Origin: Candidatus Parcubacteria bacterium
Lineage (GTDB): Bacteria > Patescibacteriota > Minisyncoccia > Phycocordibacterales > JAKFXT01
Length of the DNA stretch: 64,000 bases
Assembly: GCA_021414235.1 (NCBI GenBank)
Contig: JAIOOV010000004.1
Location: 473,591-537,590 of the forward strand
Reading direction: 5' to 3'
The notes below the pieces were generated by a model. That model saw nothing but the letters and a program-made list of their open reading frames with translations. It had not been told where the DNA came from and made no database searches. The translations under genes and the position numbers were made by a program. Below are positions 7,398-54,874 of this stretch, one piece after another. Each line of letters opens with the position of its first letter. Position 1 is the first letter of the stretch.

Positions 7398-7408
7398 TGA
7401 GGCTTAGA

Positions 7409-10051: not shown

Positions 10052-10055
10052 AAAA

Positions 10056-10610: not shown

Positions 10611-10664
10611 GGTACAACCTCCTCTCTATTTTGGTTCTGGGTGGAGCCTAACGCCATTAAACAT

Positions 10665-12261: not shown

Positions 12262-12364
12262 GATAGCCTCCCGGGGCTTTTGTGGTTGGGGGCGCCGACG
12301 TCAAAGACCTCGGTCTGCGGGGAATTATGTCCGAGAAGGCTTTAAAAGCAAGTTAGTGCTTAAC

Positions 12365-12817: not shown

Positions 12818-12822
12818 TCTTG

Positions 12823-13197: not shown

Positions 13198-13304
13198 TGG
13201 ATAGCTAAACTAGAGTTAGATGTCTTCTATTATAGTACAAAATAACTTCTTATTTATTTCAAAAATAGATACCGAGAAAAAGACTTTCGATTATGCATCG
13301 GTGT

Positions 13305-13365
13305 CATAAAAGAAAGACGGCCCGGACATTTGTCCGGGCCGTACCCTTTCGGGATTTAATACTAC
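13305..13365 (-). repeat. Copy 2 of the gene-3'-end plus terminator module (hairpin GGCCCGGACA-tt-TGTCCGGGCC followed on the minus strand by TCTTTCTTTTAT)
   Basis: See copy 1. Follows the stop of the 126-aa ORF. Confidence 0.7.
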
Positions 13366-13742
13366 CCCTTGGAAACCGCCCTTGCAGGAACTCTCTGCGC
13401 CAGCCTGGAGGCAAGCTGGGAAAGATGGAAGATCCTGGCCCGGAGATCGTTGGACTCCTGGATAGGCATCTTCCCAAGGGCGGATTGAAAAGTGCCGATA
13501 GGTACCTGGAGATTGCGCTCCAGTTCGGCGCACATCTTATCGACGCGCTTCTGCAGAGCCTTGGCACTCACGGGAATCGCGCCGTCTTTGGGCGACGATC
13601 GCAATACTCCCGGCTTCGATGCCGAGGTAGATTGGGTTCTCGGTCTTTGTGCCAATCCCGAACTCGCAGCCCCCGCCCGCCCAGCGGAACGAATCATGGA
13701 CGGACGCCAGTTCTCATTTCCACCCATCTGACTAACGCTCAT
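13362..13742 (-). CDS. Small protein homologous to the C-terminal ~110 aa of the ParB-like protein (diverged partial duplicate, possibly a gene fragment)
   Basis: The segments KALQKRVDKMCAELERNL and RARIFHLSQLASRLAQRV align with RVLTERLDRHLEMLEISL and REKLLKIAKRAEKLAGLV of the 10717..12261 product. It shares the same downstream terminator repeat. Confidence 0.45.
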   Translation of the reverse strand: MSVSQMGGNENWRPSMIRSAGRAGAASSGLAQRPRTQSTSASKPGVLRSSPKDGAIPVSAKALQKRVDKMCAELERNLQVPIGTFQSALGKMPIQESNDLRARIFHLSQLASRLAQRVPARAVSKG

Positions 13743-13846
13743 TGGTGCCCTCGTAGCTGATGTGATTGTTCCCGAATTACGATTCGTATTGTTTATAACA
13801 CTAAAATTGTGTCAGGTCAATGTTATCAAAAGAAGGTAACGTGGAT

Positions 13847-27522: not shown

Positions 27523-28179
27523 TCAGTTCTCGAACGGATAGCTCTTCACAAAATGCGCTGTGACTACGAAGCGCTCTTCTTTCGCTCCCCACACGTTACA
27601 AGTAGACAGGATGAGCTTCCCCTCCTTCTTCCCTATCTCCACAGTCTGATTCCCTGCGAGTACCTTCTCCACGGAATCCACTACATAGAGAAAGGTGGTA
27701 TTCGCCCCCGAGAGCTCGATCTCATCCCCGCGCTTCAGCTCCTTCAGCCGATTAAACACCTTGTAGGCCTGGTTGTGCACTACCGGAAGCCCAGAGCTGT
27801 GGCCGAACAAGAGGATGTTCTGATTGCTCCCCAGGAGCCCTGAGCCGGGATAGTGCACCGGGCCCTCCTGGAGGGCCTTCTCCAGCACCGTGTCGTCCTG
27901 GGTCGAAGGGCTCCGCACTGCGGTCGAGAGTTTGATTGCGGGGATACTCACGGCCCGTACTACGCCGAGTTCTGCTGAGATAGACGGAAGAGTAGCCACT
28001 TCCTTTCCGAGGATGAGCCCCCTCCAGAATTCCCGGAGACCTAAGGGAGCCAACCCGATGGCCGAGAGAGCGAAGGAGAGGAGAGCGAACACGACGAGCA
28101 GAAGGAGGAGAAAACGCCTACGCTGAGGCTTTTTATCTGTATCTTCATTCATCTGGTGCTCATTCTTAGCTTCCATGGC
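27523..28179 (-). CDS. Sortase-family transpeptidase
   Basis: N-terminal TM anchor, conserved His (LLFGHSSG), active-site LILSTC (TLXTC-type) and a downstream Arg. Track ORF extends to 28323, but MEAKNEH at 28179 gives the natural sortase architecture. Confidence 0.7.
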   Translation of the reverse strand, partial: AMEAKNEHQMNEDTDKKPQRRRFLLLLLVVFALLSFALSAIGLAPLGLREFWRGLILGKEVATLPSISAELGVVRAVSIPAIKLSTAVRSPSTQDDTVLEKALQEGPVHYPGSGLLGSNQNILLFGHSSGLPVVHNQAYKVFNRLKELKRGDEIELSGANTTFLYVVDSVEKVLAGNQTVEIGKKEGKLILSTCNVWGAKEERFVVTAHFVKSYPFEN

Positions 28180-28430
28180 TGTTATGTCAACGTTCGGCGT
28201 TAGACGCACATTGCTATTTTTTTTAGATAAAGTCAAGGGCTCTCTCGCGCCTCTTCCCACTTTTCTAAAAGTGGGAAGAGGCGCCCTTCTCTGGTACTTG
28301 CAGGGAGGACTCGGGATTGTCATACTCCGCCCATACCAACGTCCTTCCTGCTAAAGGCACTTGTACCCGCAGAGCTGTAGCTCAGGAATGACTTGACAGG
28401 AGCATAAAATTATAGTAGTTAGAACACATT

Positions 28431-29504
28431 ATGAATAGAGATACCGAGCAGTACCGGGACATCGCCATCAAGAGCTTGGCAGTCCTCGGCCTCATGACCA
28501 TCCTCGCTTTGGGCAGCTTCCTCACGCTTACCGCGCTTACCTACATCCCCAAGGTAGTCCGCTCCGTCGGCACCTTTGTCGCGAGCACCACTCCGGACGT
28601 GACCACCACCGTGGCCAACGTGAAGAATGCAGTCCAGGGCAACCTCGGCTTCGCCTCCAACAGGACCGCGCTTTCGAACGGCTCTTCCGTAACCCTCTTC
28701 TGGGACAAGACCAGCGCTGAGGCTGGCGGCTCCTACGCGCTCACCTACCCGTGCGTCAGCGGCGTCTCCGTCTCCTACAAGGGCACCACCCTCTCCTGCA
28801 ATGTCCCCTTCTATCTCGACCAAGACGCAGAAGAGGTCACCCTCTCGGTAAATTCTAAGAAGGTGCGTAACGCGGAAGTAGCCTTCGCGCTCCACTTCAC
28901 CAAGAACGGCGAGAATCGTGTCACTTCTACCGATACCACGGCCGTCTCTGTAACGAACTCCGCCATCGCTTCGACGGATGAGGCTCCTGCAGCTCCAGCC
29001 AAGCCGACAGTGACCGCCACCCGCCCTCCGGTCTACAACATCGTCAACTCCTACATCCCGGGCATCCCGACCACCTACTCCACCGTCTACATCCCGGGTA
29101 ACACTACCTACGTTCCGACTCCAGGAGCAGAGTGGGGTCAGGCGGATCTCCGCCCGGTGATCCTCGAGGTAGGAGTCATGGACCCGTACAGCAAGGTCAT
29201 CACTCCGACCCGCTACATGAGCCGCACCAGTAAGGTGGCCGTACGCTTCGCTGTCGAGAACATCGGTACCAAGACTTCCCACCCATGGGTCTTCAACGCG
29301 GTGCTTCCTACCTCCCCTCGCTACACCTACCTTCCTGAGTTCCAGCCACCTCTTCGCCCAGGGGAACGCATCGAGTACACCCTCTCCTTCGACCGTGTCG
29401 TAGAGGACAACAACTCGATCATCGTCACCGTAGACCCGGCAGGCACGCTCGCGGAAGCCACTAAGGCCAACAACTCCGTCACCGCGACCTTCACAGCGTT
29501 CTAA
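28431..29504 (+). CDS. Secreted or anchored protein with a CARDB-like C-terminal domain
   Basis: 357 aa. N-terminal signal anchor, Thr/Ser-rich. C-terminal VENIGTKTS...NNS pattern reminiscent of CARDB or Ig-like folds. Preferred over the overlapping antisense ORF 28419..29537. Confidence 0.55.
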   Translation: MNRDTEQYRDIAIKSLAVLGLMTILALGSFLTLTALTYIPKVVRSVGTFVASTTPDVTTTVANVKNAVQGNLGFASNRTALSNGSSVTLFWDKTSAEAGGSYALTYPCVSGVSVSYKGTTLSCNVPFYLDQDAEEVTLSVNSKKVRNAEVAFALHFTKNGENRVTSTDTTAVSVTNSAIASTDEAPAAPAKPTVTATRPPVYNIVNSYIPGIPTTYSTVYIPGNTTYVPTPGAEWGQADLRPVILEVGVMDPYSKVITPTRYMSRTSKVAVRFAVENIGTKTSHPWVFNAVLPTSPRYTYLPEFQPPLRPGERIEYTLSFDRVVEDNNSIIVTVDPAGTLAEATKANNSVTATFTAF

Positions 29505-41890: not shown

Positions 41891-44020
41891 TTAACGCTCC
41901 TCGAAGCGGGGGCTCACCCGGCAGGTAAAGGAGGCGGTATTGGAGACCTTGGCATCCCCGACCCGGCAGACGAAGCGGTAGAGAGACTGGACGGAGACCG
42001 GTGGAGTAAGGACCTGACCAAAAGCGCCGTTGGCGCGCACAGAGAGGTCGGGTCCTGAGATGACACAACGGAGGAACTGAGACTGCTCCGGCGGCACCGA
42101 GCTCACCCGCCAAGGGATGGTGCACTGAGAACCCTTCTGGACGAGCTCTCGCTCCGGCATGAGAGCAGTCACCGCGAGCGCACAGGCCTGCTCGCCAGGA
42201 GGCGGAGGAGCATCAGAGGATTCGTCGGGACAATAGTAGAGAGAGCGGGTTACGCCGCAGGAATTAGGGGCAGACTTGGCTTCAGCAGCTGGCTGCATCT
42301 CGTGGCGAGTGCACTCACCGTCCTTGTCAGTCGCAGTGCAGACATTGCACATCTTGGTCGCGCCGCAGGTAGGACACGGGATCTCCTGACAGGAAGGGAA
42401 TCTCCCCGTCTCTCCTACCCCACAGCTTGTGCGCGGCTGACAGGAGCCGGTCAGTCCGAAATTGATCGCAGTAGGATCCGTACAGAGAGAGCGTCCGCTC
42501 GAATACTGGCAGGCGCCGAGCGCACCGCCATTGAGCGCCAACGGATCGTTGCAGCGGACTGCGCCATAGCGACACTCTCCCGTTTCTCCATAATTGAGAG
42601 CGGTCTGGTCCGCGCAGAGACGCGCGACCGGCTGGTCGGTGCACTGCCCGTTCTCCGGATTCCAATTCGGCTGATTGCTCGGACAAGTGAGACCGATGAT
42701 CACGTCTTTCGTCGCGGGGCACTGAACACCGCTCGGCAGAGTCATGGAAGCGGTAGCCCGGAAATGGTACTGCTGCTTAGGCTGGCTTGCCGCCAGGACA
42801 CCCTCAAGAGAGCGACCATCATTCACCACCGCAAGAGAGGAGGGGAAGGACGTATCACCAGAGGAAGGAGTGAGCGAGTAGCTCTGCGCCGGACGCGAAG
42901 TCTGGATGGTATAGCCTCCGAAGCTTCCCCCTATGATTCCCGCAACACTGCCAGAGCTGGTGATGGTGGGCGTAGAGGTGGCGCACACAGAGGCGGGAGC
43001 TATGGTGATAGCCACGTTCTTTGAAGCTGAAAGAGGGGTACAGCCAGGCGCGCTATTCTCCGCTTGAATGGTACAGGAATATGAACCAGCCGATGTGGGT
43101 ACTCCCCCGATCGACAGAGGACTCGTCCAGCTCGTACCGGAAGGTATGGGCAGACAGCTCATACCGAGCGTCGTGTAGTTGCTGGCAGTTGCTTGATATG
43201 AGAAATTCTCGCCCACCACGCCCGCTGCTGTGCCAGAGGAAGTGATCTCCGGAGCTACAGTCGAACACGTTGCCGGAGTTACTTCTATCTCAAGCACATC
43301 CGCACGTGAACAGCTCGGAGAATTCCTCATGTAGTATCTGTCCTCGCCGCTCCCCGCCACCGTACTGCTCTGGTTATCCCCGGCTCCACCTTCATAGACC
43401 CACTCCTCAAGGTCATTACGAGAAGTGAGGGCTACGGAGTATGTCCCTGGAACAGCAGGCACTCCGGAGATGATGAGACCAGTGGAGTCTGGCACCTGGG
43501 TTACGCCCGCACGCGCCTGCACCCGAGCACTCAAGACGTTCGCGGAAAGGCCGGAACCCGTGAGGCCCGCTGGATCAAGCGAAGTGATACCTGCCCCGAA
43601 CCAGCCTGACTCAAATTCCCCCTTCTCCCGGAGCTGCGGATGCTCCCAAGGAGCAAGATCACGAGAAGGATTGGGATTCACCTGAGCGACCATCACTTCG
43701 TATGAAAAAGATTGACCGGCCTGCGTGGTGACACGGAGGGGACTCGAGAAGCGCGGCGTATTGTATTCAGTGCAATACTGAGGGCTGTAACACTGGCTGC
43801 CGGAAGCACTGCAGTCATCTATATTATTCATTTCCGCTCCGCACTGGCCTCCCGTACAGTCACTGTTACCAGCAGGACTTCCTGAGCTCGTTTCGCTGCC
43901 GCCAGCATCCTCAGCAGCAAGAACTGCAGGAATCTGTCCGATCACAGACAAGTGAATTCCCATGCCCCCGAAGAGAGCAAGCGCGAATGCGGTAGCGAGG
44001 ATAAAAGGAATTTTTTTCAT
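41891..44020 (-). CDS. Large secreted Cys-rich protein with repeated Ig-like segments and a C-terminal domain shared with the YYQ-repeat proteins
   Basis: Signal peptide MKKIPFILATAFALALFGG (internal start at 44020; track ORF runs to 44206). About 60 Cys. C-terminus FTCRVSPRFEER matches the ...CRVNPAFEEI and ...CQVNPTFEEI termini of the 49938 and 50858 products. Confidence 0.6.
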   Translation of the reverse strand: MKKIPFILATAFALALFGGMGIHLSVIGQIPAVLAAEDAGGSETSSGSPAGNSDCTGGQCGAEMNNIDDCSASGSQCYSPQYCTEYNTPRFSSPLRVTTQAGQSFSYEVMVAQVNPNPSRDLAPWEHPQLREKGEFESGWFGAGITSLDPAGLTGSGLSANVLSARVQARAGVTQVPDSTGLIISGVPAVPGTYSVALTSRNDLEEWVYEGGAGDNQSSTVAGSGEDRYYMRNSPSCSRADVLEIEVTPATCSTVAPEITSSGTAAGVVGENFSYQATASNYTTLGMSCLPIPSGTSWTSPLSIGGVPTSAGSYSCTIQAENSAPGCTPLSASKNVAITIAPASVCATSTPTITSSGSVAGIIGGSFGGYTIQTSRPAQSYSLTPSSGDTSFPSSLAVVNDGRSLEGVLAASQPKQQYHFRATASMTLPSGVQCPATKDVIIGLTCPSNQPNWNPENGQCTDQPVARLCADQTALNYGETGECRYGAVRCNDPLALNGGALGACQYSSGRSLCTDPTAINFGLTGSCQPRTSCGVGETGRFPSCQEIPCPTCGATKMCNVCTATDKDGECTRHEMQPAAEAKSAPNSCGVTRSLYYCPDESSDAPPPPGEQACALAVTALMPERELVQKGSQCTIPWRVSSVPPEQSQFLRCVISGPDLSVRANGAFGQVLTPPVSVQSLYRFVCRVGDAKVSNTASFTCRVSPRFEER

Positions 44021-44021
44021 A

Positions 44022-44936
44022 TTAGTTCCAAGAAGAGAGGTAGAGCGTGCCACCTTCGTATGGAGAGAGGTCGAGGATACTCCTACGCTCTCCCGTGTCG
44101 AGCCGCTCGATGACGATCTCGAACTGCGACGCCTCCCCCTTACGTACTCGGAGAGCTGCGTACGCGTTGTCTGGCGAGAACGCCGCATCATACGCTCGCG
44201 CCTCAAGAGTATCGTTGAGAAGAAGCTCCTTCGGATTCACCGGGTTCACCTTGAGCAGCATTACTCGCTCGAGGCCGGGAATGAGCCAGGCAACCAAAGA
44301 GTGATCCTGGCTTGCGGCGAGCTTCATGCCAGCCCCGCTCGCTCCCCAAACCTTGGTCTTGGCGAGAGTCCCTAGGTCGTAGCGCACCAGGCCTTCTGGA
44401 GCGAGCGCAAAGAGCGATTTCCCATCAAGGGACCAGACGGGATAGCTTCCCGCGCCGATGCGGCGTGGAGTCCCTGGGAGATCTATTGCATAGATATCCG
44501 AGCCGCCTCTCGCTTCCTGAGAGTACGCAAGCCCCGTACCCACCGGAGACCAGTCTGGGGAATGCCTAAAGGCTTCTCCACGAGTGATCGGACGACGTTC
44601 CTCCGTAGCGGGATCATAAATGACCACCTGGCTCGCCAGGGCTCCGGGACCGTAGGCGATATGCGCGAGACGATTGCCATCAGGAGCCACTGCCGCATCG
44701 AAATTGGAATTACTATCGCGACCGATACGACGGAGCTCTTTGGTCGCAAGCTCATACTCATACAAATTCACCTCCGTACTCCCTTTATCCGCAAGCGAAA
44801 GGAGAAGTGTGCCCTGAGGATCGAACTTAGCCAAGGACGCAGAGCGCTGATAGAAATACACGCCGAGAGCGGCAGCGAGAAGGAGTATGGAGAGGACTCC
44901 AGCGACGAGGCGAGTACGCGAGGACATTGCGTCCAT
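44022..44936 (-). CDS. TolB-like beta-propeller (PD40 repeat) protein with N-terminal anchor
   Basis: Repeated HSPDWSP..G..LAY and AFSPDNAYAAL motifs. Confidence 0.55.
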   Translation of the reverse strand: MDAMSSRTRLVAGVLSILLLAAALGVYFYQRSASLAKFDPQGTLLLSLADKGSTEVNLYEYELATKELRRIGRDSNSNFDAAVAPDGNRLAHIAYGPGALASQVVIYDPATEERRPITRGEAFRHSPDWSPVGTGLAYSQEARGGSDIYAIDLPGTPRRIGAGSYPVWSLDGKSLFALAPEGLVRYDLGTLAKTKVWGASGAGMKLAASQDHSLVAWLIPGLERVMLLKVNPVNPKELLLNDTLEARAYDAAFSPDNAYAALRVRKGEASQFEIVIERLDTGERRSILDLSPYEGGTLYLSSWN

Positions 44937-44994
44937 TATACGGCATAACCCCGCCTTATGGCGGGGTTATGCACAGCACGATCAGAAATCCGAT

Positions 44995-45426
44995 TTACTG
45001 CTGCACCTCGATTGATCCGCGGAAGCGGGCGTGGAGATGATCATGCATATTCCACTTACCTATCCTCTCGAACTGGAAGGAATAGGTTTCTCCAGGACCT
45101 ACCGGCTTGTCAGAATCGAATTCGGAATAGATTTCGTGCGTCGGATGAAGGTCAGAAGCTGGCCAGTGGAAATCCTTGCCGACATTCACGAACTCTATAA
45201 TCTGGCCCTTCTTGATGACGAGAGTAGAGGGCTCGAAGCCATCGTCAGTCATGTTCACCGTGATCCTAGGGAGAGCAGGCGTAGAAGAAGCGGTATCTGG
45301 CGTAGTAGTAGCTATATTTTCTGTAGGGGTCTCCACGACCACCTCAGGTGCCGTGCGGTTGGTCCAGTAATACCAGCCGCCGCCGAAGACTACGATGACT
45401 ACGGCAAGAAGTATGAGTTTATTCAT
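44995..45426 (-). CDS. Secreted cupredoxin-like, His-rich protein (no Cys)
   Basis: 143 aa. EFVNVGKDFHWPASDLHPTHEIY...WNMHDHLHARF. Overlaps the next gene by 4 nt. Confidence 0.4.
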   Translation of the reverse strand: MNKLILLAVVIVVFGGGWYYWTNRTAPEVVVETPTENIATTTPDTASSTPALPRITVNMTDDGFEPSTLVIKKGQIIEFVNVGKDFHWPASDLHPTHEIYSEFDSDKPVGPGETYSFQFERIGKWNMHDHLHARFRGSIEVQQ

Positions 45427-45920
45427 CGTGAACGCAGGGAAAAGTAAGTAATAGCGCCGCCCGCGAAGAACGCGGCGAGTACCGATAATAGCATACCGAG
45501 AGGAACGGATGATTTGGACGTCTCCGCCTTTTCCGCCTCAAAAGTGAAAGTATGTTCTGCCACGGTTCTGCCCCCCTTCTCAAAACGCACATCCATCTCA
45601 TAGGCCCCCTCCTGCGGAAAACGATAAGTAAGCACCGTCTTGCCGATATCCGCCTTAGCTATGCCCGTAGCGAAATACGCGGCGGAGCCTCTACCGAGAC
45701 GCACCCAGATATGGTCGAAGGCTATTTCTTCCCCTCCGGCATCAAGAACGGAGAAATCAAAAATCGTACTCTCCCCCGAGACTGGAGCAGAAGAGTATCC
45801 GATATCCATCAGAACTCCCGAAGAGAGAGTAGCTTCAAAGGAAGCGCTTTCACCGTGTGCCGCAACGGTACACGGGATGAGCAAGATCGCAATAATGTAA
45901 AACGAGAGTGCGTATTTCAT
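45423..45920 (-). CDS. Secreted beta-rich protein whose mature N-terminus begins with His (CopC/YcnI-like candidate) and has a C-terminal TM anchor
   Basis: Signal peptide MKYALSFYIIAILLIPCTVAA/HGE, C-terminal LLSVLAAFFAGGAITYF. Internal start at 45920 chosen because it abuts the upstream stop (45925). Copper binding is inference only. Confidence 0.4.
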   Translation of the reverse strand: MKYALSFYIIAILLIPCTVAAHGESASFEATLSSGVLMDIGYSSAPVSGESTIFDFSVLDAGGEEIAFDHIWVRLGRGSAAYFATGIAKADIGKTVLTYRFPQEGAYEMDVRFEKGGRTVAEHTFTFEAEKAETSKSSVPLGMLLSVLAAFFAGGAITYFSLRSR

Positions 45921-45924
45921 GATG

Positions 45925-47133
45925 CTATGGACGAGCGCCGCAATGCTCCTGCCACTTCTCCGGAAGGAGAGAACAGAGACGATTCGACTCTGGGGAGCCG
46001 GCATGGAAGGTGAAGCTTGCAGTGCGCACCATGATGTCATAACAAGTCTCCCCTACCCCCTTCGCTTCCGCAGCAGCACAGAGGGCTACGGAGCGTTCGA
46101 TATTGCGGTAGTCGTTCTCCAGGAGGCGGGAAGCCGCATCCGCATAACAGAGCCCGCGATCCTCCGGAAGCATAGTGTCGCAGAACGCGCCGATCTTCTC
46201 GTTATCGAATTCAAGCTGCGCCACGAAGACGAACACCAAGGCATGCTTGCAGCGCTCGCGAGGGCCGGCTTCAGAGAGCTGGTTGCACCAGCGACTAATA
46301 GCGCCTGGCGCCTTCAGCTCTTCTCGCTGAAGCGGCCAGGATTCGCTCCAGCAAGACGCCTTGTCGTAACCGCTATAAGCGGAACAATACGCACGCTGGG
46401 TCCCCGTAGCCACCTCCTTACCCTTGATGAGGTCGAAGTCGTCCGGCTCGAGCGGCTGGAAGATCTGCATGAACACGCCATCGGAGCAGACCTGACTCAT
46501 ATCCTGCCCCGGCTTTATGGAAAGTTCCCTGCACAGACCGAGCGATTTCGGGATATCCGCGCGAGTGATGTACATAAGCAGATGCCCGAGCGCATGGTAG
46601 CAGCTCGCCTGTTCGAGCCCCGTAGGATTGAAGCTATCCTGCGGCTCGCACACGTTCGCGAATTCGGGTTTGTACTTTTCGATCTCGCTGTCAGAGAGAG
46701 ATTCTGTACGGAAGCGTTCTTGGAACGCGCCGTGGATGCAGCCGTTGGAGCATACGCCAGATGGACAGCGCTGGATCACCTCCGTCCACTTATCCGGATC
46801 CTTGGCGGTTTCCTTGGCGCTGATCTTGTGCCCGAGCACATGGCAGTAGGTGTAGGTCTTGTCCTTGGCTTGAACTACTGCTGCGACGCGCACCGCATCC
46901 TCCATGGAAACGCCCTTGTCCATGAGCTTGGGGATCTCGTCTTCGTAGCAGGTCGGACGATATCGTGCGCTCGCGCAAGCGGCGACGACCTCGTCAGCGT
47001 AACGCACCAGACGCATCCCCGGATCAGGAGCAAGCATGGGAGCGGCGAGTATGTAAATCTCACCAAAGAGGAAAGCCGCGAGGATAACGATAGCGGCAGC
47101 AAACTTCGTATGCTTCTTTAAAAACGAGTTCAT
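45925..47133 (-). CDS. Membrane-anchored Cys/His-rich protein, paralog A of a tandem triplicated family (C-x-H-[AG]-x-G-H motif)
   Basis: 402 aa. CYHALGHLLMYI and CHVLGHKIS motifs. 26 Cys. Confidence 0.6.
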   Translation of the reverse strand: MNSFLKKHTKFAAAIVILAAFLFGEIYILAAPMLAPDPGMRLVRYADEVVAACASARYRPTCYEDEIPKLMDKGVSMEDAVRVAAVVQAKDKTYTYCHVLGHKISAKETAKDPDKWTEVIQRCPSGVCSNGCIHGAFQERFRTESLSDSEIEKYKPEFANVCEPQDSFNPTGLEQASCYHALGHLLMYITRADIPKSLGLCRELSIKPGQDMSQVCSDGVFMQIFQPLEPDDFDLIKGKEVATGTQRAYCSAYSGYDKASCWSESWPLQREELKAPGAISRWCNQLSEAGPRERCKHALVFVFVAQLEFDNEKIGAFCDTMLPEDRGLCYADAASRLLENDYRNIERSVALCAAAEAKGVGETCYDIMVRTASFTFHAGSPESNRLCSLLPEKWQEHCGARP

Positions 47134-47134
47134 A

Positions 47135-48145
47135 TCAGCGGATTATCTGAGAACCGGCCACACAGCTCTGTCGTGCATCTTCCGAAAGTCCGGCGCAGAG
47201 CTGAGGCGAGAGATCCCGCACGCGAGGCTCTGCGAAGAAGCTCCAGGAAGCCCCCTGGCGGCACAGCAGCTGTTCTTCCGTCCCAACGAGACTATTGCAG
47301 ACAGCGAGAGACTTCTTTACATCATACCCCGACTCCGGAGCCACGATATTGCCGATACCTTTGAAGCACGCCTCCCGCTCGCCCTTCGCACCAACCTCGG
47401 CACAGAGAGCGGCTGCTGGAGCGGCATCTCCATTAAATGTCCGCATCCACCATTGCGGCATATCGAAATAGCAGGCTTCGCGATATATGGAAAGAGCGTC
47501 GCAGGGCGCATGCGCCTTCTTCGGGTCGAACATGCGCGGGGAGGTAAGGTCGGGATCAGCCATCGTATGAAAATTGTACTCCATGAAGACTCCGCCGGAG
47601 CAGCCGCCGATCGGTCCTTTCCAGGTGAGCGTCGCACAGATATCGAGCGCCTCCGCGAGTTTGTCATCGCCGACAGACCACAGGAGGCCGTGCCCGATTC
47701 CATGCGAGCAGCCCAGGCCCTTCTCTCCCCACGCTGCCACGCAGGCGCGATCAAGCTGGCCAAGCACTTCTACCCCATGCTCGCTGATGGCCCGCCCGAA
47801 GAAGCTGTGGTAGCAGCCGAAGCCGAACGAGCTGTCACAGACCGCGACCCCAGGAAGTCCCTCTTTCTCATACAGTAACTCCCCAAAGACATGCGCAAGC
47901 GAATGCGCCGAGCCAGGCGGAAGCTTTCCGTACACCTCCACGAATTTCTGGTACGCAGCCTTCGCACCCAGCGTATCTATGGTCTCTGCCCACTCAGCCT
48001 TCTCACGCTTAAAATATTTGGATTGGAGCCGTGGTGGATCAGGGACCTCGGTGCCGCGCGAGATATACAGATAGTATGCTTCGCCAGCTACGAAAAAGAT
48101 CAGGATAGCGGCGGCGAAAATAAGTTTTAACGGGTAACGGCGCAT
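47135..48145 (-). CDS. Membrane-anchored Cys/His-rich protein, paralog B
   Basis: 336 aa. CSHGIGHGLLWS and SAHSLAHVFG motifs. Confidence 0.6.
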   Translation of the reverse strand: MRRYPLKLIFAAAILIFFVAGEAYYLYISRGTEVPDPPRLQSKYFKREKAEWAETIDTLGAKAAYQKFVEVYGKLPPGSAHSLAHVFGELLYEKEGLPGVAVCDSSFGFGCYHSFFGRAISEHGVEVLGQLDRACVAAWGEKGLGCSHGIGHGLLWSVGDDKLAEALDICATLTWKGPIGGCSGGVFMEYNFHTMADPDLTSPRMFDPKKAHAPCDALSIYREACYFDMPQWWMRTFNGDAAPAAALCAEVGAKGEREACFKGIGNIVAPESGYDVKKSLAVCNSLVGTEEQLLCRQGASWSFFAEPRVRDLSPQLCAGLSEDARQSCVAGSQIIR

Positions 48146-49335
48146 GAGGCAGTATAGGGTTGCGGATAAGCAGCGCAGAACTCTCTCATGTAACGACCAT
48201 CGCGGCCTCTAAAATAACGCGCCATATCTGCGAGCCGGGTGAAGCAATCTCTCTGATCGCCCTCTTCCGGAATCACGCTGCAGTAACGTACCGAGGCATG
48301 GAAATCATTCTCCCCTCCCCAATAAAGCGAAGCGACTGCCTGAAAGGAGCAATCCCTCCTGCCATCTTCCGCTGGCGAGAGCGAGCACCACTCATACATC
48401 GTACGCATAGCCTCATCCGGAAGTGATGTCACCGCACGTACATCGCGAGAAGAGAGGATTACCGGGAACTCCTTACCGAAACCACCGAAGCAGGCGCGCC
48501 GATCCTCTCTCTGTGTGAGCGCGTCACAATAGGTCATGCCAATCCTGAAATCTTCCGCCTTCGGAGCTCCCAGATTGCCTCCGGCAGCCTCCATAAGATG
48601 CGGAGTGAGGTAGGTGTAGCAGAAGCCGCGCACATCCTTCGGCATGAAATCCGCGTCACAGGGATAGAGCGGATCTTCCTCCTTGAAATATTTCTTCGCC
48701 TTCTCCTCGCGGAGCTTAGGATCATGTACGCCGCCGGTCATCTCCATGATGGTGCCGCCGATGCACTCCTGGTATTCGTTCGCCTTGTTACCAGCAGATT
48801 CCCCCGCGCGCTTACAGAGCGGCACCGCCTGATCCAGTTCGTAATCCGTATATGCAAGCACGCCATGCCCCAGGCCGTGATAGCACATGTTGTACGCTCC
48901 GGCACCGCCGGGAGCCTTGCGACAGATCGCAGCCACCTTCTCGAGCACGGGCGGCCCGAACTCGAGAAGCGCGCCGATCACTACCGTATGCGAGCAGGCG
49001 TTGCGCAGATCAGGCGTGCAGTAGGCCATACCCTCGAGGCCATATTGCTTGTAGAGCTCATCCCCCACCGTATGTCCCACGAGATGCATGTCCACACCGG
49101 GGACAGAAGGCATGCGGATGAGCACCTGGTACGCATACGGAGCACCTTTGGCTTCGGCAAGATCCCGAAAGTATCGCGAGAGCTCGGGGAAGGAGCGTGG
49201 TGTCTGGAGTTCAGCGAGTTCCGGATATGAACCCGCGCTCGCAAAGAGAAGATAGCCCCCGAGAGAGAGATTCAGAAGGAGAAGGGCGGCAGCTGAAGAG
49301 AGAATCAGCCGGTACCGGAAGAGAGACCGCATCAA
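48127..49335 (-). CDS. Membrane-anchored Cys/His-rich protein, paralog C
   Basis: 402 aa. MCYHGLGHGVLAYT and HLVGHTVGDELY motifs. Confidence 0.6.
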   Translation of the reverse strand: MMRSLFRYRLILSSAAALLLLNLSLGGYLLFASAGSYPELAELQTPRSFPELSRYFRDLAEAKGAPYAYQVLIRMPSVPGVDMHLVGHTVGDELYKQYGLEGMAYCTPDLRNACSHTVVIGALLEFGPPVLEKVAAICRKAPGGAGAYNMCYHGLGHGVLAYTDYELDQAVPLCKRAGESAGNKANEYQECIGGTIMEMTGGVHDPKLREEKAKKYFKEEDPLYPCDADFMPKDVRGFCYTYLTPHLMEAAGGNLGAPKAEDFRIGMTYCDALTQREDRRACFGGFGKEFPVILSSRDVRAVTSLPDEAMRTMYEWCSLSPAEDGRRDCSFQAVASLYWGGENDFHASVRYCSVIPEEGDQRDCFTRLADMARYFRGRDGRYMREFCAAYPQPYTASCAVTR

Positions 49336-49342
49336 GAAGTGA

Positions 49343-49879
49343 TTACTCCGTCACGAAGATCATGCCAGAGGCGCTTACGGAAGATCCGCAGCCGTAGCCG
49401 TAGATGCCGCCATTCTGGGCAAATGCGACCTTGAACTCCTTGGTTTCTCCAGCAGGAACGGAGTACACGGAATCCTTATTGAAGGCGATGGTCTGCTCTA
49501 CCGTTGCCGTGTTCTTTATTTTAAGAGGCGCGCCTTTCTTTAGCGCGAGCACCACCGGCTTCACAGAACAACTCGTGCCGATCTCAAGCGCCGGGACCGT
49601 TTTAGCTGCAGAGACCACTACATCAAAGAATGCTTTCTGCTCTGCCGCCGTCGCATTCTGGGAAGGAGGCGTAAGCGCTTTCTTCTCCTCAGCAGAGAGC
49701 TCGTAGGAAGAGCCAGCGGGAAGATTCACCCCAGTAGAAGGAGTCTGCGGAGCGTTTGTCGAAGGATTCTGGGAGGTCGTGCCCGCAAGAGGCTTATAAT
49801 CCCGCACATAGATGAGATAACCGAGGACGACAGCGCCGACCGCAAGTACCCCGACGATGATCTTTAATGTTCGCTCCAT
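49343..49879 (-). CDS. Membrane-anchored hypothetical protein (178 aa)
   Basis: N-terminal TM, Ser/Thr/Pro linker, C-terminal beta-rich domain ending GGIYGYGCGSSVSASGMIFVTE. Confidence 0.5.
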   Translation of the reverse strand: MERTLKIIVGVLAVGAVVLGYLIYVRDYKPLAGTTSQNPSTNAPQTPSTGVNLPAGSSYELSAEEKKALTPPSQNATAAEQKAFFDVVVSAAKTVPALEIGTSCSVKPVVLALKKGAPLKIKNTATVEQTIAFNKDSVYSVPAGETKEFKVAFAQNGGIYGYGCGSSVSASGMIFVTE

Positions 49880-49937
49880 ATGATTATATTTATGATTACA
49901 GTGAGTATACTCCGTTCGACGTCTCCATTATCCCCAG

Positions 49938-50795
49938 TTAGATCTCCTCAAAAGCAGGATTGACCCGGCAATCCACCGTCTTCGAGGTATTAACTTCAGA
50001 ACCGTTGTAGCAACGTACTGTGTAGGTACTCGTCTCGGTGACATTCGGTACGGATACCGAACCGGATGTCCCTGTCTGGCTCACTCCTGGGCCCGTGACC
50101 GTGCAGGAAGTAGCATTCGTCGCTGACCAGGTGAAGCTGCAGGAAGCGCCTTTGTTGATCACGATGGAGGGAGCGGCAGGAACCGTGGTGATGGTGGGCG
50201 CCGTACAAGAGGATTCCGGCGGAGCCACGGTAGCGGAACACGCACCCGCACAGCTATACGTACCGTAGGTCACCGCGCCGCAGCTATTAGCGGCAGATGT
50301 ACAGACCTGTCCCTGGTTGGCAGAGCAATAAGAAGCTTGGTAGTAGCCCTGGGAGTAGTAGTAGCCTTGATAGTACCCCTGCGAGTAATAGTAAGGTTGG
50401 TAATACCCCTGAGAGTAGTAGTAGCCTTGGGAATAGTAGTAGCCTTCGTAATACCCCTGGTAGTAAGACTGGTAATAACTTTGATAATACGATTGATAGT
50501 ACCCTTGGTAGTAACCCTGGTAGTACCCCTGATAGTAGGATTGGTAGTAGCCTTGGTAATACCCCTCTGCATAAGAATCCCCCGAAGCCGGGAGTATGAC
50601 TCCTCCCTCCTCTCCATTCGGTGAGAGCGAGTTGTAATCAATCTCTGGAGACTGCGGACCAGAGCTCTTCTCCAAATACCCCAAACTTGCTAGAGAGATG
50701 ACGAGAAAGATTGCCACACTCGCAAAGGAAAGGAGCCTGCGCTCGCGGAGTAGGTTAGAAAATCTTTTATTTATTTCACGAAAAAAGTGCCTCAT
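49938..50795 (-). CDS. Tyr/Gln/Gly-rich repeat protein 1 (YYQGYYQS repeats) with N-terminal anchor and conserved Cys-rich C-terminal domain
   Basis: 285 aa. About 25 copies of (G/S)YYQ-type units, then the ASYCSANQGQVCTSAANSCGAVTYGTYSCAGACSATVAP domain ending CRVNPAFEEI. Confidence 0.7.
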   Translation of the reverse strand: MRHFFREINKRFSNLLRERRLLSFASVAIFLVISLASLGYLEKSSGPQSPEIDYNSLSPNGEEGGVILPASGDSYAEGYYQGYYQSYYQGYYQGYYQGYYQSYYQSYYQSYYQGYYEGYYYSQGYYYSQGYYQPYYYSQGYYQGYYYSQGYYQASYCSANQGQVCTSAANSCGAVTYGTYSCAGACSATVAPPESSCTAPTITTVPAAPSIVINKGASCSFTWSATNATSCTVTGPGVSQTGTSGSVSVPNVTETSTYTVRCYNGSEVNTSKTVDCRVNPAFEEI

Positions 50796-50857
50796 CGTAC
50801 GTCTTTTATTGTAGCACTATGTAAACCCCCCTGACACCAGCGAGGTACGTCCAATTC

Positions 50858-51775
50858 TTAGATTTCTTCAAAAGTCGGATTGACCTGGCAGTTCACCGTC
50901 TTTGTGGTATTCACCATGGAGCCATTGTAACAACGCACTTGGTAGCTTCTCGATTGCGTGATATCAGGGACAGACACTGAGCCCGAAAGACCAGTGGAAT
51001 TCACCCCAGGACCGGTCACGACGCAAGAAGTAGCATTAGCACTGCTCCAGCTAAAGCTGCAAGCATCGCCTCTATTGATGACGATTGTCGGAGAAGGAGG
51101 CGCAACAGTGATAACTGGGACGACGCAGGAAGATTCCGCAGGAGCCACGGTAGCGGAACACGCACCCGCACAGCTATACGTACCGTAGGTCACCGCGCCG
51201 CAGCTATTAGCGGCAGATGTACAGACCTGTCCCTGGTTGGCAGAGCAATAAGAAGCTTGGTAGTAACCTTGATAATAACCTTGATACGCCGCTTGATAGG
51301 CGGACTGGTAATAGCTCTGGTAGTAGGATTGATAAGCAGCCTCATATCCAGCTTGGTAATACCCTTCGTAATAAGGCTGATAGTAGCTCTCGTACGTAGA
51401 CTGATATTGGCTCTGGTAATACGCCTCGTAGGTCGACTGGTACTGGCTTTGATAGTAACCCTCGTACGTAGACTGATATTGGCTCTGGTAATACGCCTCG
51501 TAGGTCGACTGGTACTGGCTCTGGTAATAGCTTTGGTAAGCAGCTTCAAAATAAGAATCCCCCGAAGCCGGGAGTATGACTCCCCCCTCCTCACCATTCG
51601 GTGAGAGCGAGTTGTAATCAATCTCTGGAGACTGCGGACCGTTATCAATCGGCTGAAGGTAGCTCAAGGCGGAAATCACAGCCAAAACCAGAGCCAATAC
51701 CGCCAGAAAGAGCAACTTCCGATCACACAGCAAAGCGCCCATATTACGCCGCCATCTCTTAAGAAGGTACTTCAT
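50858..51775 (-). CDS. Tyr/Gln-rich repeat protein 2 (YYQSQYQSTYEA repeats), tandem paralog of 49938..50795
   Basis: 305 aa. Shares two exact or near-exact nucleotide blocks with its neighbour (50221-50345 = 51142-51266; 50572-50660 ~ 51552-51640). Confidence 0.7.
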   Translation of the reverse strand: MKYLLKRWRRNMGALLCDRKLLFLAVLALVLAVISALSYLQPIDNGPQSPEIDYNSLSPNGEEGGVILPASGDSYFEAAYQSYYQSQYQSTYEAYYQSQYQSTYEGYYQSQYQSTYEAYYQSQYQSTYESYYQPYYEGYYQAGYEAAYQSYYQSYYQSAYQAAYQGYYQGYYQASYCSANQGQVCTSAANSCGAVTYGTYSCAGACSATVAPAESSCVVPVITVAPPSPTIVINRGDACSFSWSSANATSCVVTGPGVNSTGLSGSVSVPDITQSRSYQVRCYNGSMVNTTKTVNCQVNPTFEEI

Positions 51776-51784
51776 CCTATTTTG

Positions 51785-52609
51785 TTACTGAATCGCACTT
51801 AAGTCTGCCCCAGAGAGGAGTAGAAGATTTTTCTCTACAGAGCGCAGAGAACCCGCAAGACCTTGTGGATGATATCGAGCGTCGTTCCCAGGGTACGCCC
51901 TACCCCACTCCTCTGGCGTCATGGCTTTGAAACCAGCAAGAGCTTTCTCCAGGGCACTACGAGCCTCTTCCCTCTCTCCGAGATTAAGGAGCGCAACACC
52001 AAGAGAGTTCTGAAGCCAAGGATTCTCCGGATGATAAGAAAGGGCCTTTTCTGCAACCGTAAGGACATCCTTATAGCGACCCTGCCGAAAATAGATCCAA
52101 CAGAGGTCATTCGCTCCCGCCCAGCTCTCCGGTTCCAATTCCAGATACCTAGCGAAGTCACCCTCTGCCTCCGAGAGATTATTCCTATATCCGTACACAA
52201 GCCCACGCATGTAATAAGCGTTGTGGATGGAAGAATCCAGCCGCAGGGTCTCGTTTATAGCCTCGATAGCTTTGCTATAACGCCCCTGAAAGAAATAAAC
52301 CCGGGAGAGACCGAAATGGATATATCCCGGCTCTGGATACCCTAAGTCGAGAGCCCTCTTATAAAGTTCCTCTGCCTTCTTTAGGTCATGAGCATTCTCT
52401 CCGAGATAAAAATTACCCGCGCGATAGGCTAAGCTAGCATCCTCCGGCGCAAGCGCGAGAGCTACGGCAGGCATATGTAGCCTCTCCATAAACACATGGG
52501 CCCACAAGGGTCGATGGAAATCGACATAGGAATAGAGGCTCTTCCAACTAAGAAGAGTCGTGAGAGCGAGGAGAAGACCAAGGAGGCAAAGAACCGCACG
52601 CAGGCGCAT
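51785..52609 (-). CDS. TPR-repeat protein with signal/anchor
   Basis: 274 aa, multiple TPR-like helices (AYRAGNFYLGENAHDLKKAEELYKRALDL...). Confidence 0.6.
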   Translation of the reverse strand: MRLRAVLCLLGLLLALTTLLSWKSLYSYVDFHRPLWAHVFMERLHMPAVALALAPEDASLAYRAGNFYLGENAHDLKKAEELYKRALDLGYPEPGYIHFGLSRVYFFQGRYSKAIEAINETLRLDSSIHNAYYMRGLVYGYRNNLSEAEGDFARYLELEPESWAGANDLCWIYFRQGRYKDVLTVAEKALSYHPENPWLQNSLGVALLNLGEREEARSALEKALAGFKAMTPEEWGRAYPGNDARYHPQGLAGSLRSVEKNLLLLSGADLSAIQ

Positions 52610-52652
52610 AGATATGAATATTGTATAGTAAGGACGCTAAGCGCCCAAGCCG

Positions 52653-54119
52653 ATGAATACCCAGTATCAAAGAGAAGACCCGCGCAGACTTGAGGTTGCG
52701 ATCCGTACAAAAGATTTTGCTTCTCTCTATGTGAAATCTTACTGGAAACGAAGTTTCCTAGAAGCCCTCCTTGGGACCCTGGAGGAACGTCTCGGGATAG
52801 AAATCTTGACCAAAGTACCGGAGAATCTTCGTGATGTTCACCTGCTGATATTCAAGAACCTGACAATCATAGAAAAATTGAGGAGACAGGGAATATTAGA
52901 GAAGGTCGAAGTCCTTAATCCTCCACCAGATGAGCCCCCTCTATACCGCGTTCATACAAAGGGCCATCTTCGCGCCTCCGGTGCAAGCTTCCTTGATCCT
53001 GAAAAAGCCCTGTGGAGCGCGCTCGGGGAGTGCGTCGAACGCTCTCTATGGTCAGGCTCTTCGGAATGGTACGAAAAGAAGATCAAGGTCTCTTCGTATA
53101 AAGAGCTTCCTGGGGATAAGATAGACCCCCGCTCAATTACTGGTTTCTCCGAGGAACAGAAGAGCTTGGATCCGATGCTACAAGTGGATGAATCGACAGT
53201 TCTCGGCTGGGTACAAGCCAAAGAAAAAATCTCCGGAAAGATGATCTGGGTACCTCTCCAGCTTTTCAGCGCCGAATATTGCCAGAAGAGACAGAAGTCT
53301 CCTGAACGACCGGAAAACGTCGAGCCACTTCTCCGTTCCGCCGTAACCACAGGACTCGCGACTTCTTCACATAGCCACGAAGAAGCCGTCCTCTACGGGG
53401 CATTGGAAGCGATCGAACGCGATGCTTTCATGATCTGCTGGCTCAAACGCCTCTCGCCTCCTCGCATCGATATCAATCACCTCGCCGAACAAGACGATGA
53501 TCTGAAAAGCATTCTTGATTCCCTGGCTCGCTACCACCTCCGTGCAGAACTGCTTCTACTTCCGACTGATTTTCCTTTCCTGGTCATCGCAGCCGTTCTG
53601 CTCGATGAAAGCGGAAAGGGGCCGGCGTTTACTATGGGCGCAAAGGCGCATTGGGATATGAAAACCGCCATCCTTGGAGCCCTCTCTGAAGCCGCTAGCG
53701 TACGCTTTTCTCTTAAAACCGCATACGAAGCCCCTGTGGACATGAAGAAGGTCGGTCGCAAGGAGCGCTTGATCTATTGGGCAAAGGAGGAAAACACCCC
53801 GAAACGCAGCTTTCTTACACAGGGGGAAATAAGAAAGATCACTCTAGAAGAGAATAAGAGTGATACTGGCACAGAATCTCTCCGACTGTCGGAAGCCTTG
53901 AGAAATAAGAAATATCCATTGTATGAAGTCGAGATAAGTTCCGAAGCAAGCCGTAGAAGCGGTTTTCGTTCAGTCTGTGTGCATATCCCTGACCTGCAGC
54001 CGATGCATCTCGACGAGCGAGTTCCCGCTCTCGCCGGAAAACGCCTGGCAGAGATTCCCTCTCTCCTCGGATACGAACCCGCCAAAGAAATGAATCCTGA
54101 ACCCCACCCCTTTCCATGA
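52653..54119 (+). CDS. YcaO-domain protein, azoline-forming cyclodehydratase type (C-terminal PxPxP)
   Basis: GASFLDPEKALWSALGECVERSLW and HEEAVLYGALEAIERDAFMICWL (YcaO ATP-binding Glu motifs). Extreme C-terminus NPEPHPFP. Stop TGA overlaps the start of the next gene (ATGA). Confidence 0.8.
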   Translation: MNTQYQREDPRRLEVAIRTKDFASLYVKSYWKRSFLEALLGTLEERLGIEILTKVPENLRDVHLLIFKNLTIIEKLRRQGILEKVEVLNPPPDEPPLYRVHTKGHLRASGASFLDPEKALWSALGECVERSLWSGSSEWYEKKIKVSSYKELPGDKIDPRSITGFSEEQKSLDPMLQVDESTVLGWVQAKEKISGKMIWVPLQLFSAEYCQKRQKSPERPENVEPLLRSAVTTGLATSSHSHEEAVLYGALEAIERDAFMICWLKRLSPPRIDINHLAEQDDDLKSILDSLARYHLRAELLLLPTDFPFLVIAAVLLDESGKGPAFTMGAKAHWDMKTAILGALSEAASVRFSLKTAYEAPVDMKKVGRKERLIYWAKEENTPKRSFLTQGEIRKITLEENKSDTGTESLRLSEALRNKKYPLYEVEISSEASRRSGFRSVCVHIPDLQPMHLDERVPALAGKRLAEIPSLLGYEPAKEMNPEPHPFP

Positions 54120-54874
54120 ATAACCATTTCGCCAAGCGGTTCCATCATCAAGCCATCGCGAACTGGCGTCTACCCAAAACTCGCGATGCCAAGAATCCGA
54201 TCCCCAGGGAAGATATCTTATTCAAGACATACCCTCGCTCTGAAAACACGGCGCTCGCCGAGCCGCTTCCCCTCAGCCATACACTCGAGAAAACCCTCTC
54301 CGAGCGGAAGACGACGCGCTCCTTCGATCCAGTCTCCGCCGTCAGTTTCCAAGAACTCTCTTCCCTGCTCTTCTGGAGCGCCGGACTTAGAGAGAACCGT
54401 ACAGACCCACAACAGAGCAAACGGTTCTATCCATCCGCGGGAGAACGTTATCCGCTAGAGATATATATAGCTGCGCGCAACGTCGATGGCTTGCCTAAAG
54501 GCCTGTATCACTTCAATCTCCTCAAGAACTCTCTGGAGAAGATAGGTGGTGAGGAATACTGCGATAATTTTCAAAAAAACCTCGGGTACGAATGGTCTAG
54601 GGATACCGCAGTAGCCATCCTCATCACCGGAGTATGGGAGCGGACTTTCTCAAAATACGGGGATTTCGGATATCGGCTCATATGTACAGAAGCCGGACAT
54701 GTGGCGCAAAATCTACAGCTCATAGCCCAATCCCTTGGTCTGGACTATGCCTCTATCGCAGGGTTCAAAGAAAAAGAGATGGATACCCTCCTAAATCTGG
54801 ACTCGGATAAAGAATCATCTCTCTACCTGACCCTCATAGGAAAAGCTACACCTTCCACCCGAACGAACGCATGA
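54116..54874 (+). CDS. SagB-type (McbC-like) FMN-dependent dehydrogenase of the nitroreductase superfamily
   Basis: SERKTTRSFDPVSAVSFQELSSLLFWSAGL...YPSAGERYPLEIYI...ICTEAGHVAQNLQLIAQSLGL. Translationally coupled to the YcaO gene. Confidence 0.75.
   Translation: MNNHFAKRFHHQAIANWRLPKTRDAKNPIPREDILFKTYPRSENTALAEPLPLSHTLEKTLSERKTTRSFDPVSAVSFQELSSLLFWSAGLRENRTDPQQSKRFYPSAGERYPLEIYIAARNVDGLPKGLYHFNLLKNSLEKIGGEEYCDNFQKNLGYEWSRDTAVAILITGVWERTFSKYGDFGYRLICTEAGHVAQNLQLIAQSLGLDYASIAGFKEKEMDTLLNLDSDKESSLYLTLIGKATPSTRTNA

Follow-up and report, generated by a model that had tools for sequence, protein, structure and literature searches.

What are three exported proteins of an uncultured bacterium carrying when they end in the same few residues: a domain of their own, a sorting signal or a module for contact with a partner? 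The question arose from a 64,000-nucleotide stretch of a Candidatus Parcubacteria bacterium genome (contig JAIOOV010000004.1, positions 473,591 to 537,590 of the forward strand; hereafter the window), in which three minus-strand open reading frames (ORFs) terminate in ...FTCRVSPRFEER, ...VDCRVNPAFEEI and ...VNCQVNPTFEEI*, giving the common ending C-[RQ]-V-[SN]-P-x-F-E-E-[IR]-stop. One encodes a Cys-rich protein of 709 amino acids (aa), and the other two encode proteins of 285 and 305 aa with linkers rich in Tyr and Gln, referred to here as the YYQ proteins. All three genes encode proteins that are exported by the Sec route and retained by an N-terminal anchor or signal peptide, and the cassette that they share is an exported, disulfide-locked Cys knot followed by a single immunoglobulin-like (Ig-like) sandwich at the far C-terminus. 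New here is the combination of a terminal Ig-like repeat, a preceding Cys knot and a conserved C-terminal tail in Parcubacteria; the fold itself is known. We hold the identity and architecture of the cassette to be near-certain, and regard as evenly poised the fuller reading developed below, in which the cassette would be a contact module displayed on a stalk and its exposed tail a docking peptide.

The homology of the three ends, as claimed in the initial annotation of this DNA, was borne out by alignment, by BLASTP and by a hidden Markov model (HMM) run over the window. Over an alignment of 83 aa, the last 99 aa of the 709-aa protein are 30% identical to the 285-aa protein (BLASTP E=1e-10). 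The two YYQ proteins are tandem paralogues with 58% identity overall, and a three-way alignment of the last ~90-98 residues holds 23 invariant columns; four Cys and one Trp are among them, as is the P-x-F-E-E block. The homologous unit was found to span about 85-90 aa rather than the 50-60 aa first described, or about 120-130 aa if the upstream Cys knot is included. A search of all six frames of the window with the HMM of the three ends revealed no fourth copy (next-best match E=0.026), and Pfam and NCBIfam scans of the three proteins gave no match. The largest protein, initially annotated at 771 aa, is shorter than its ORF, which reaches 44206; its true start lies at 44020 (MKKIPFIL), giving 709 aa, because its orthologues P0031 and P0187 (710 aa) begin at the signal peptide. 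Together with those in L001 and L018, these orthologues (697-710 aa) are syntenic, lying upstream of rpsB-tsf, and the Ig-like domain of the L001 orthologue, which comes from a Candidatus Paceibacterota metagenome-assembled genome (MAG), is 66% identical to that of the window protein. All three window proteins have a single N-terminal hydrophobic segment and lack a C-terminal one.

Structure prediction placed the shared unit in a familiar fold. An AlphaFold model of the last 129 residues of the 285-aa protein, built on an alignment of 23 sequences, reached a mean predicted local distance difference test (pLDDT) score of 92.7 and comprised a small β-hairpin Cys knot followed by an Ig-like sandwich of 7-8 strands (strands at residues 45-49, 54-57, 63-70, 74-79, 82-85, 88-93, 100-108 and 112-122). 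The last of these strands takes in C-R-V, and the tail (residues 123-129, N-P-A-F-E-E-I) is coil. Top Foldseek matches in the PDB were generic Ig/Fn3 sandwiches only (probability 1.00, TM-score about 0.5, best E=9.7e-3), and a profile search of PDB sequences returned only marginal matches to antibody CH1 domains. AlphaFold and Foldseek thus agree on membership of the Ig-like β-sandwiches: as modelled, the shared unit is an ordinary sandwich of this kind with no close solved relative, and C-[RQ]-V-[SN]-P is predicted to be its final strand. In a model of the full-length 285-aa protein, the only ordered parts were the transmembrane (TM) helix and the C-terminal cassette, with a domain pLDDT of 86-94; the Tyr-rich linker and a juxtamembrane motif (the N-motif) fell below 50, and the last five residues (AFEEI) scored 52. 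We had considered that the N-motif (SPE...PAS) might pack onto the C-terminal domain, and its pLDDT in this model lends that idea no support.

Cysteines appear to lock both parts of the cassette. The knot follows the pattern C..xNSCG...G...C.G.C....PP(D/E)SSC, which occurs in five copies in one relative (P0094). Besides the canonical Cys pair of its family, the Ig-like domain often has a second pair, to which strand B contributes one Cys (G..C.I.W) and the last strand the other (C-[RQY]-[LV]-x-P); among relatives these two residues are either both present or both absent, as expected of a disulfide.

The initial annotation had called the domain novel, a description that does not hold for its core, which is a generic Ig-like sandwich and a member of a large family of tandem repeats. 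An exhaustive search with a profile of the three window ends over 1.84 billion representatives (clusters at 50% identity) yielded 2,468 matches at E<=1e-3, of which 498 reached E<=1e-10; the best-scoring ones were long proteins (600-5,000 aa) that repeat the unit 5-22 times. The window domains and this family have in common the signature ..P..I..G.S..L.W.S.NATSC...G....SGS..V.P...T.Y.L.C.G, which in the tandem units reads ..P..I..G.S..L.W.S.NATSC...G....SGS.....L...T.Y.L.C.G.GG....V.V, and the profile of the window ends places them within this 'NATSC' family. A word-indexed search with the three ends found no match, the family surfacing only in the exhaustive profile search. Pfam and NCBIfam scans of the tandem relatives, even at E<=10, gave no model for the repeat, and Pfam searches of the isolated domain and the tandem relatives at E<=10 returned noise only (GEVED, DUF7927 and weak fn3 matches). 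Judging from these profiles, the window domain is the terminal copy of a very widespread, uncatalogued bacterial tandem repeat of large surface proteins. A tandem Ig-like repeat family of 2,468 clusters, with up to 22 copies per protein and without a curated model, represents an apparent large gap in domain annotation.

A minority of the matches resemble the window proteins in having a single copy at the very C-terminus that fits the whole profile including the tail (P0085, P0094, P0102, P0125, P0133, P0137 and P0140, and the orthologue P0031), and later searches and pattern scans yielded ~25 more proteins with a single terminal copy or tail. The initial annotation had staked its proposal on the motif being present in related genomes, and the ending does recur in other genomes. 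The named carriers are 'hypothetical' proteins from Parcubacteria/Patescibacteria MAGs, with the exception of one variant-tail carrier labelled Chloroflexota. As the initial annotation had suggested checking, the carriers possess an N-terminal anchor or signal, followed by widely differing middles (YYQ or poly-Gly linkers, a Hint domain, GYAWSDNIGW repeats or Asp-rich repeats). Two types recur: type a, to which both window YYQ proteins belong, combines a TM helix with the N-motif (SPExxxxxxSPxGxxGGxxxPAS), and type b a TM helix with C.[FIL]N[VI]V[WF]GC and poly-Gly. In a separate arrangement, seen in the 395-aa carrier P0137 / P0191 (NCBI 'Hint domain-containing protein [Patescibacteria group bacterium]'), the cassette of Cys knot, Ig-like domain and tail is joined to a signal peptide and a Hint (intein-like) domain.

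Beyond the sandwich, the carriers share a tail with the consensus P-x-[FY]-x-E-[IFL]-COOH, and most of them stop exactly five residues past the Pro. Not one of 754 internal repeat copies is followed by the tail, which does follow 20 of the 34 terminal ones. The latter share is biased upward because the searches were seeded with tail-bearing profiles, and to this extent counts against the docking reading, while the contrast between internal and terminal copies is unaffected. Across 192 proteins, the motif occurred 25 times at the extreme C-terminus, compared with 0.02 occurrences expected from shuffles, and nine times elsewhere, compared with about 10.6 expected in total. Proteins whose N-terminal portions are unrelated bear it alike, with a Hint domain, GYAWSDNIGW repeats, poly-Gly or multi-domain arrays ahead of it. 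The possibility, raised in the initial annotation, that the pattern is just the terminal strand of a generic Ig fold was therefore half right: C-[RQ]-V-[SN]-P does form the closing strand, but the x-F-E-E-I that follows the Pro is restricted to protein ends. Searches of the literature brought up nothing relevant.

Restriction to protein ends need not imply a function, and the tail could be a passively inherited remnant, left behind when one cassette was recently duplicated and shuffled between proteins of a narrow Parcubacteria lineage. The tandem paralogy of the two YYQ genes, the near-exclusive assignment of named carriers to Parcubacteria/Patescibacteria and the few loci recovered by pattern scans (one in GTDB representatives, six in JGI metagenomes) all fit such an origin, which we nonetheless consider improbable. 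The carriers are 31-55% identical over the cassette, yet P, [FY], E and the exact stop position have been kept; the tail is found on both the four-Cys and the divergent two-Cys versions of the domain, and on multi-domain proteins (such as P0040, P0136, P0159 and P0168); and comparisons of the tail codons of the 285-aa gene, L009 and the 305-aa gene, and of the 709-aa gene and L001, revealed synonymous changes only, save at the variable x (Ala in the 285-aa protein, Thr in the 305-aa protein). The number of terminal occurrences, set against the shuffled expectation, speaks the same way. From these comparisons, the tail appears to be an add-on under clear selection, present only at protein ends.

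For what, then, would the tail be selected? In the YYQ proteins, the disordered Tyr/Gln-rich stalk would hold the cassette off the membrane, making it a displayed module for contact with proteins or cell surfaces, and the predicted flexible, acidic-aromatic tail may be a short peptide by which the protein docks onto a partner in trans, and not a covalent sorting signal. The 'interaction module' of the initial annotation is in that sense plausible, and a docking role for the tail in particular is a tentative proposal, somewhat doubtful on present evidence. For the YYQ type, the best candidate partner would be the membrane-anchored TPR protein encoded immediately upstream, whose TPR domain should face outward. 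Orthologues of this protein (39-44% identity) lie upstream of type-a tail genes at five further loci (L007, L008, L011, L015 and L017), making six genomes with the window; the TPR gene directly precedes the tail gene in four of the five, and in L015 one gene, a homologue of the 178-aa protein of the window, stands between them. Alignment of the six TPR sequences shows 37 invariant columns, and in L017 the genes downstream are pilin-like, not rpsB-tsf.

Several further observations weigh against docking. No TPR homologue was found near tail genes of other types (L002-L005, L012-L014), the TPR neighbour occurring with type a alone, so the TPR gene may relate to the type-a N-motif or reflect inherited gene order beside rpsB-tsf. 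The N-motif could itself be what the neighbouring TPR protein recognises. The terminal residue of the tail is not always hydrophobic, being R in the 709-aa protein and its orthologues, and one to six extra residues extend beyond the motif in P0153, P0154 and P0155, both of which argue against strict recognition of a free carboxylate. Finally, the last nine residues of the cassette model average a pLDDT of 83, so that the tail may instead rest on the domain and cap it.

Such a cap would act in cis: the aromatic and terminal hydrophobic residues would pack on the edge of the sandwich and the Glu pair with a basic residue, stabilising a domain that has no following repeat, with no partner in trans. 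We think this explanation, the main rival to docking, unlikely on the whole, though it has much in its favour. The tail is confined to places without a following domain, it is modelled with moderate confidence in the cassette as just described, its best-conserved positions are P, [FY] and E instead of the terminal residue, and some members run past the motif. The non-hydrophobic R that ends the 709-aa protein counts on this side too. Conversely, the tail is coil, with the low pLDDT reported above in the full-length model, and most carriers stop exactly five residues past the Pro, a stricter constraint than packing by itself would impose. Some family proteins, P0147 ('...VTVTP') and P0120 for instance, end straight after the last strand without a tail, so that the fold needs no cap, unless those sequences are truncated.

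The N-motif to which the TPR gene may relate is conserved in its own right. S-P-E-x6-S-P-x-G-x2-G-G-x3-P-A-S is invariant in seven type-a proteins that elsewhere share just 32-37% identity with the 285-aa protein, and no Pfam model matched it. It is present in the two YYQ proteins of the window and also in P0094, P0153-P0155, P0159 and P0164.

A third function for the tail, taking up the cell-envelope attachment raised in the initial annotation, would be covalent attachment, with the tail as a new sorting signal read by a sortase-like or Lnt/CN-hydrolase-like transferase that links the protein to wall or lipid. Strong conservation of a motif at the exact C-terminus is what such a signal would look like, a sortase gene lies within the window, and type-b relatives stand beside an Lnt-like gene at four loci. 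We nevertheless rate covalent sorting as very improbable. The tripartite architecture of known signals is missing, with neither a hydrophobic helix nor a basic tail, and no NCBIfam sorting-signal model matched; the initial annotation was accordingly right that these are not LPXTG, PEP-CTERM or GlyGly-CTERM signals, a view that the lack of any Pfam or NCBIfam match shares. The N-terminal anchors already hold these proteins, and no processing enzyme is conserved beside the genes across all tail loci, the Lnt-like genes accompanying type b only, so that the suggestion of covalent attachment found nothing in its support. The sortase gene announced at 27523..28179 does exist, with a larger extent (Table 1); over 13 kb separate it from the tail genes, to which it is not linked in the relatives. 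Its neighbours (24282-26123, 26274-27473 and 28431-29504) have no C-terminal LPXTG-type signal, and its substrates are not evident in the window.

The Lnt-like genes (LNT_N + CN_hydrolase) adjoin type-b tail genes at loci of which two are mutually syntenic, and several type-b proteins have a lipobox-like ..A-C just past the helix and may be lipoproteins. We looked for homology between these Lnt-like neighbours and the 402-aa Cys-rich paralogue of the window and found none, the paralogue not being homologous to the L002 or L003 genes; nor did a Pfam scan of 20 window ORFs, covering all genes in 44022-54874 around the tail genes, reveal an Lnt-like gene.

Table 1. Positions of the tail genes, their parts and neighbouring genes. 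Coordinates refer to the window, except in the last four rows, where they refer to the locus named.
Feature	Coordinates	Strand	Remarks
Gene of 709-aa Cys-rich secreted protein	41891..44020	-	Signal peptide, He_PIG-like repeats, C.DP.A.N.G..G.C repeats, shared cassette at the end
Two-Cys units, 709-aa protein	42300-42900	-	Three consecutive units
NSCG-like Cys segment, 709-aa protein (KSAPNSCGVTRSLYYC...GEQAC)	42182..42277	-	Aligned to the NSCG knot of relatives
C-terminal Ig-like domain, 709-aa protein	41909..42181	-	Four conserved Cys; alignment, profile, BLASTP
Tail P-R-F-E-E-R and stop, 709-aa protein	41894..41911	-	Same in L001, codon changes synonymous only
Gene of 285-aa YYQ protein	49938..50795	-	TM anchor (about aa 19-42), N-motif, Tyr-rich linker, Cys knot, Ig-like domain, tail
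Juxtamembrane N-motif SPEIDYNSLSPNGEEGGVILPAS, 285-aa protein	50583..50651	-	Core positions invariant in seven aligned type-a proteins
YYQ low-complexity linker, 285-aa protein	50328..50576	-	48% Tyr; predicted disordered
NSCG Cys knot, 285-aa protein	50205..50327	-	41 aa, six Cys
Ig-like β-sandwich, 285-aa protein	49956..50204	-	C-R-V-N-P within the predicted last strand; AlphaFold, Foldseek
Tail P-A-F-E-E-I and stop, 285-aa protein	49941..49958	-	Predicted coil
Gene of 305-aa YYQ protein	50858..51775	-	Tandem paralogue, layout as 285-aa protein
N-motif, 305-aa protein	51563-51631	-	
YYQ linker, 305-aa protein	51248-51556	-	35% Tyr
Cys knot, 305-aa protein	51125-51247	-	
Ig-like domain, 305-aa protein	50876-51124	-	
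Tail P-T-F-E-E-I and stop, 305-aa protein	50861..50878	-	
TPR protein, membrane-anchored, 274 aa	51785..52609	-	Immediately upstream of YYQ genes; Pfam TPR_2 E=2e-22; TM-like segment aa 1-25
TM-anchored 178-aa protein	49343..49879	-	Just downstream of YYQ genes
Three adjacent Cys-rich paralogues, TM-anchored	45925-47133, 47135-48145, 48127-49335	-	336-402 aa, 14-20 Cys each; the 402-aa paralogue is 48127-49335
YcaO cyclodehydratase and nitroreductase-family genes	52653-54874	+	YcaO: Pfam E=1.6e-48
Sortase gene	27523-28323	-	Pfam Sortase E=2.3e-19
Type-b tail gene, L002	8158-9354		Beside Lnt-like gene
Type-b tail gene, L003	3306-4544		Beside Lnt-like gene
Type-b tail gene, L004	6337-7938		Beside Lnt-like gene
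Type-b tail gene, L005	7712-9241		Beside Lnt-like gene

Within the individual proteins (Table 1), the 709-aa protein has 34 Cys among the 708 residues past Met1. Ahead of its cassette lie the three consecutive two-Cys units C-x-D-[PQ]-x-A-[LI]-N-x-G-x3-G-x-C (CADQTALNYGETGEC, CNDPLALNGGALGAC and CTDPTAINFGLTGSC), together with two ITSSG..G..F.Y repeats, for which the counterparts in the L018 orthologue give a faint He_PIG match only. The linkers of the YYQ proteins are of extreme Tyr/Gln/Gly/Ser low complexity and both are predicted to be disordered, and their DNA consists of imperfect tandem repeats with periods of 12, 36 and 72 that give rise to spurious ORFs in other frames. The 305-aa protein corresponds to NCBI MCE9644329.1 (P0009), 'hypothetical protein [Candidatus Parcubacteria bacterium]', for which NCBI uses a later start; an exact-sequence look-up of the 285-aa and 305-aa proteins and of P0009 gave no match.

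The YYQ genes sit in a minus-strand run of genes for N-terminally anchored proteins (44022-52609), comprising PD40, cupredoxin, three Cys-rich paralogues, the 178-aa protein, the two YYQ proteins and the TPR protein. L018 is collinear with this block from the 178-aa gene onward, its contig beginning at the 3' end of a YYQ-like gene, short of any TPR gene. The order of the three adjacent Cys-rich paralogues is kept in L018, and neither Pfam nor NCBIfam has a match for them. A homologue of the 178-aa protein, besides its position in L015, lies just upstream of the tail gene in L016. Genes related to pili are found near tail genes elsewhere: a 118-kb contig (L002) has three tail genes within 9 kb (6407-15069) beside a type IV pilus set (PilM, PilO, MshEN and T2SSE ATPases; 1-5435), and the pilin-like genes of L017 adjoin its tail gene. 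Divergent from the TPR gene, the YcaO cyclodehydratase gene is followed by an overlapping nitroreductase-family (SagB-like) gene, and the two resemble an azoline/azole peptide-modification pair. A link between this pair and the tail genes was considered and dropped, since neither L007 nor L015 has the pair beside its TPR and tail genes.

Parcubacteria and other Patescibacteria have tiny genomes, a life attached to other cells is assumed for many of them, and their surface proteins are mostly annotated as 'hypothetical'; our analysis gives three such proteins a defined architecture of anchor, stalk, Cys knot, Ig-like tip and tail. It also isolates a six-residue motif that is restricted to protein ends and that, in one subfamily, has a conserved TPR gene as partner. 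A tail that proved to be a docking signal would help to track down the surface complexes and host-contact proteins of these uncultured bacteria; one that serves as a cap alone would be an ordinary domain variant. At its most ambitious, the docking reading would make the tail a new extracytoplasmic C-terminal docking signal of Parcubacteria/Patescibacteria, read by a dedicated receptor (the TPR protein for the YYQ type) and serving to assemble or hold surface complexes for host-cell attachment, a surface counterpart of EEVD/Hop or PTS1/PEX5 recognition that we consider quite unlikely.

Comparison with known systems places the cassette more closely. It resembles the substrates of LPXTG, PEP-CTERM, GlyGly-CTERM and PGF-CTERM sorting in its short conserved motif near the C-terminus of surface proteins, although the residues of that motif are not theirs. 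The window proteins are not LPXTG sortase substrates, since they end five residues past the Pro, without a C-terminal hydrophobic segment and without an NCBIfam match, and they do not belong with PEP-CTERM, GlyGly-CTERM or other exosortase and rhombosortase signals, as they lack the TM helix and the basic cluster and gave no NCBIfam match. Nor are the YYQ proteins precursors of thiazole/oxazole-modified microcins (TOMMs) that a YcaO enzyme would modify: they are 285-305 aa long, membrane-anchored and fitted with a folded C-terminal domain, and the distribution of the YcaO pair described above is equally at odds with this.

Docking motifs read by TPR proteins provide another parallel. In Hsp70 and Hsp90, the acidic EEVD-COOH binds Hop, and the SKL-COOH of PTS1 cargo binds PEX5; in both cases, the ligand ends at its free carboxylate. 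The tail is like these in mostly ending at the carboxylate, and a TPR gene, its putative partner, lies beside the YYQ-type genes in six genomes. It differs in its residues ([FY]-x-E-[IFL]) and in its extracytoplasmic, bacterial setting; many tail proteins have no TPR neighbour, and the window TPR protein has generic TPR similarity only. The bacterial FxSxx-COOH system (its TPR component being NF040586) likewise joins a motif at the exact C-terminus to a dedicated TPR protein. The window genes fall outside it: the tail reads F-E-E-I, the TPR protein reaches 16.3 bits where the cutoff is 300, and no radical-SAM or maturase-type neighbour lies near the tail genes.

In size, fold and position, the cassette is reminiscent of the C-terminal domain (CTD) of type IX secretion system (T9SS) cargo in Bacteroidota (TIGR04183), an Ig-like sandwich of ~80-90 aa at the very C-terminus of exported, otherwise unrelated proteins. 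The window proteins differ in keeping an N-terminal membrane anchor and in belonging to Parcubacteria, which are not known to have an outer membrane or a T9SS. Membership of the T9SS families (TIGR04183/TIGR04131) can be set aside, given that no NCBIfam match was found at E<=0.1 and that the host is a Candidatus Parcubacteria bacterium. The nearest kin are the tandem bacterial Ig-like repeats (Big, He_PIG and fn3-like), with which the β-sandwich fold is held in common and among which the window domains score as members of the repeat family. From these they are set apart by a single copy at the extreme C-terminus, a preceding Cys knot, a second disulfide and the tail.

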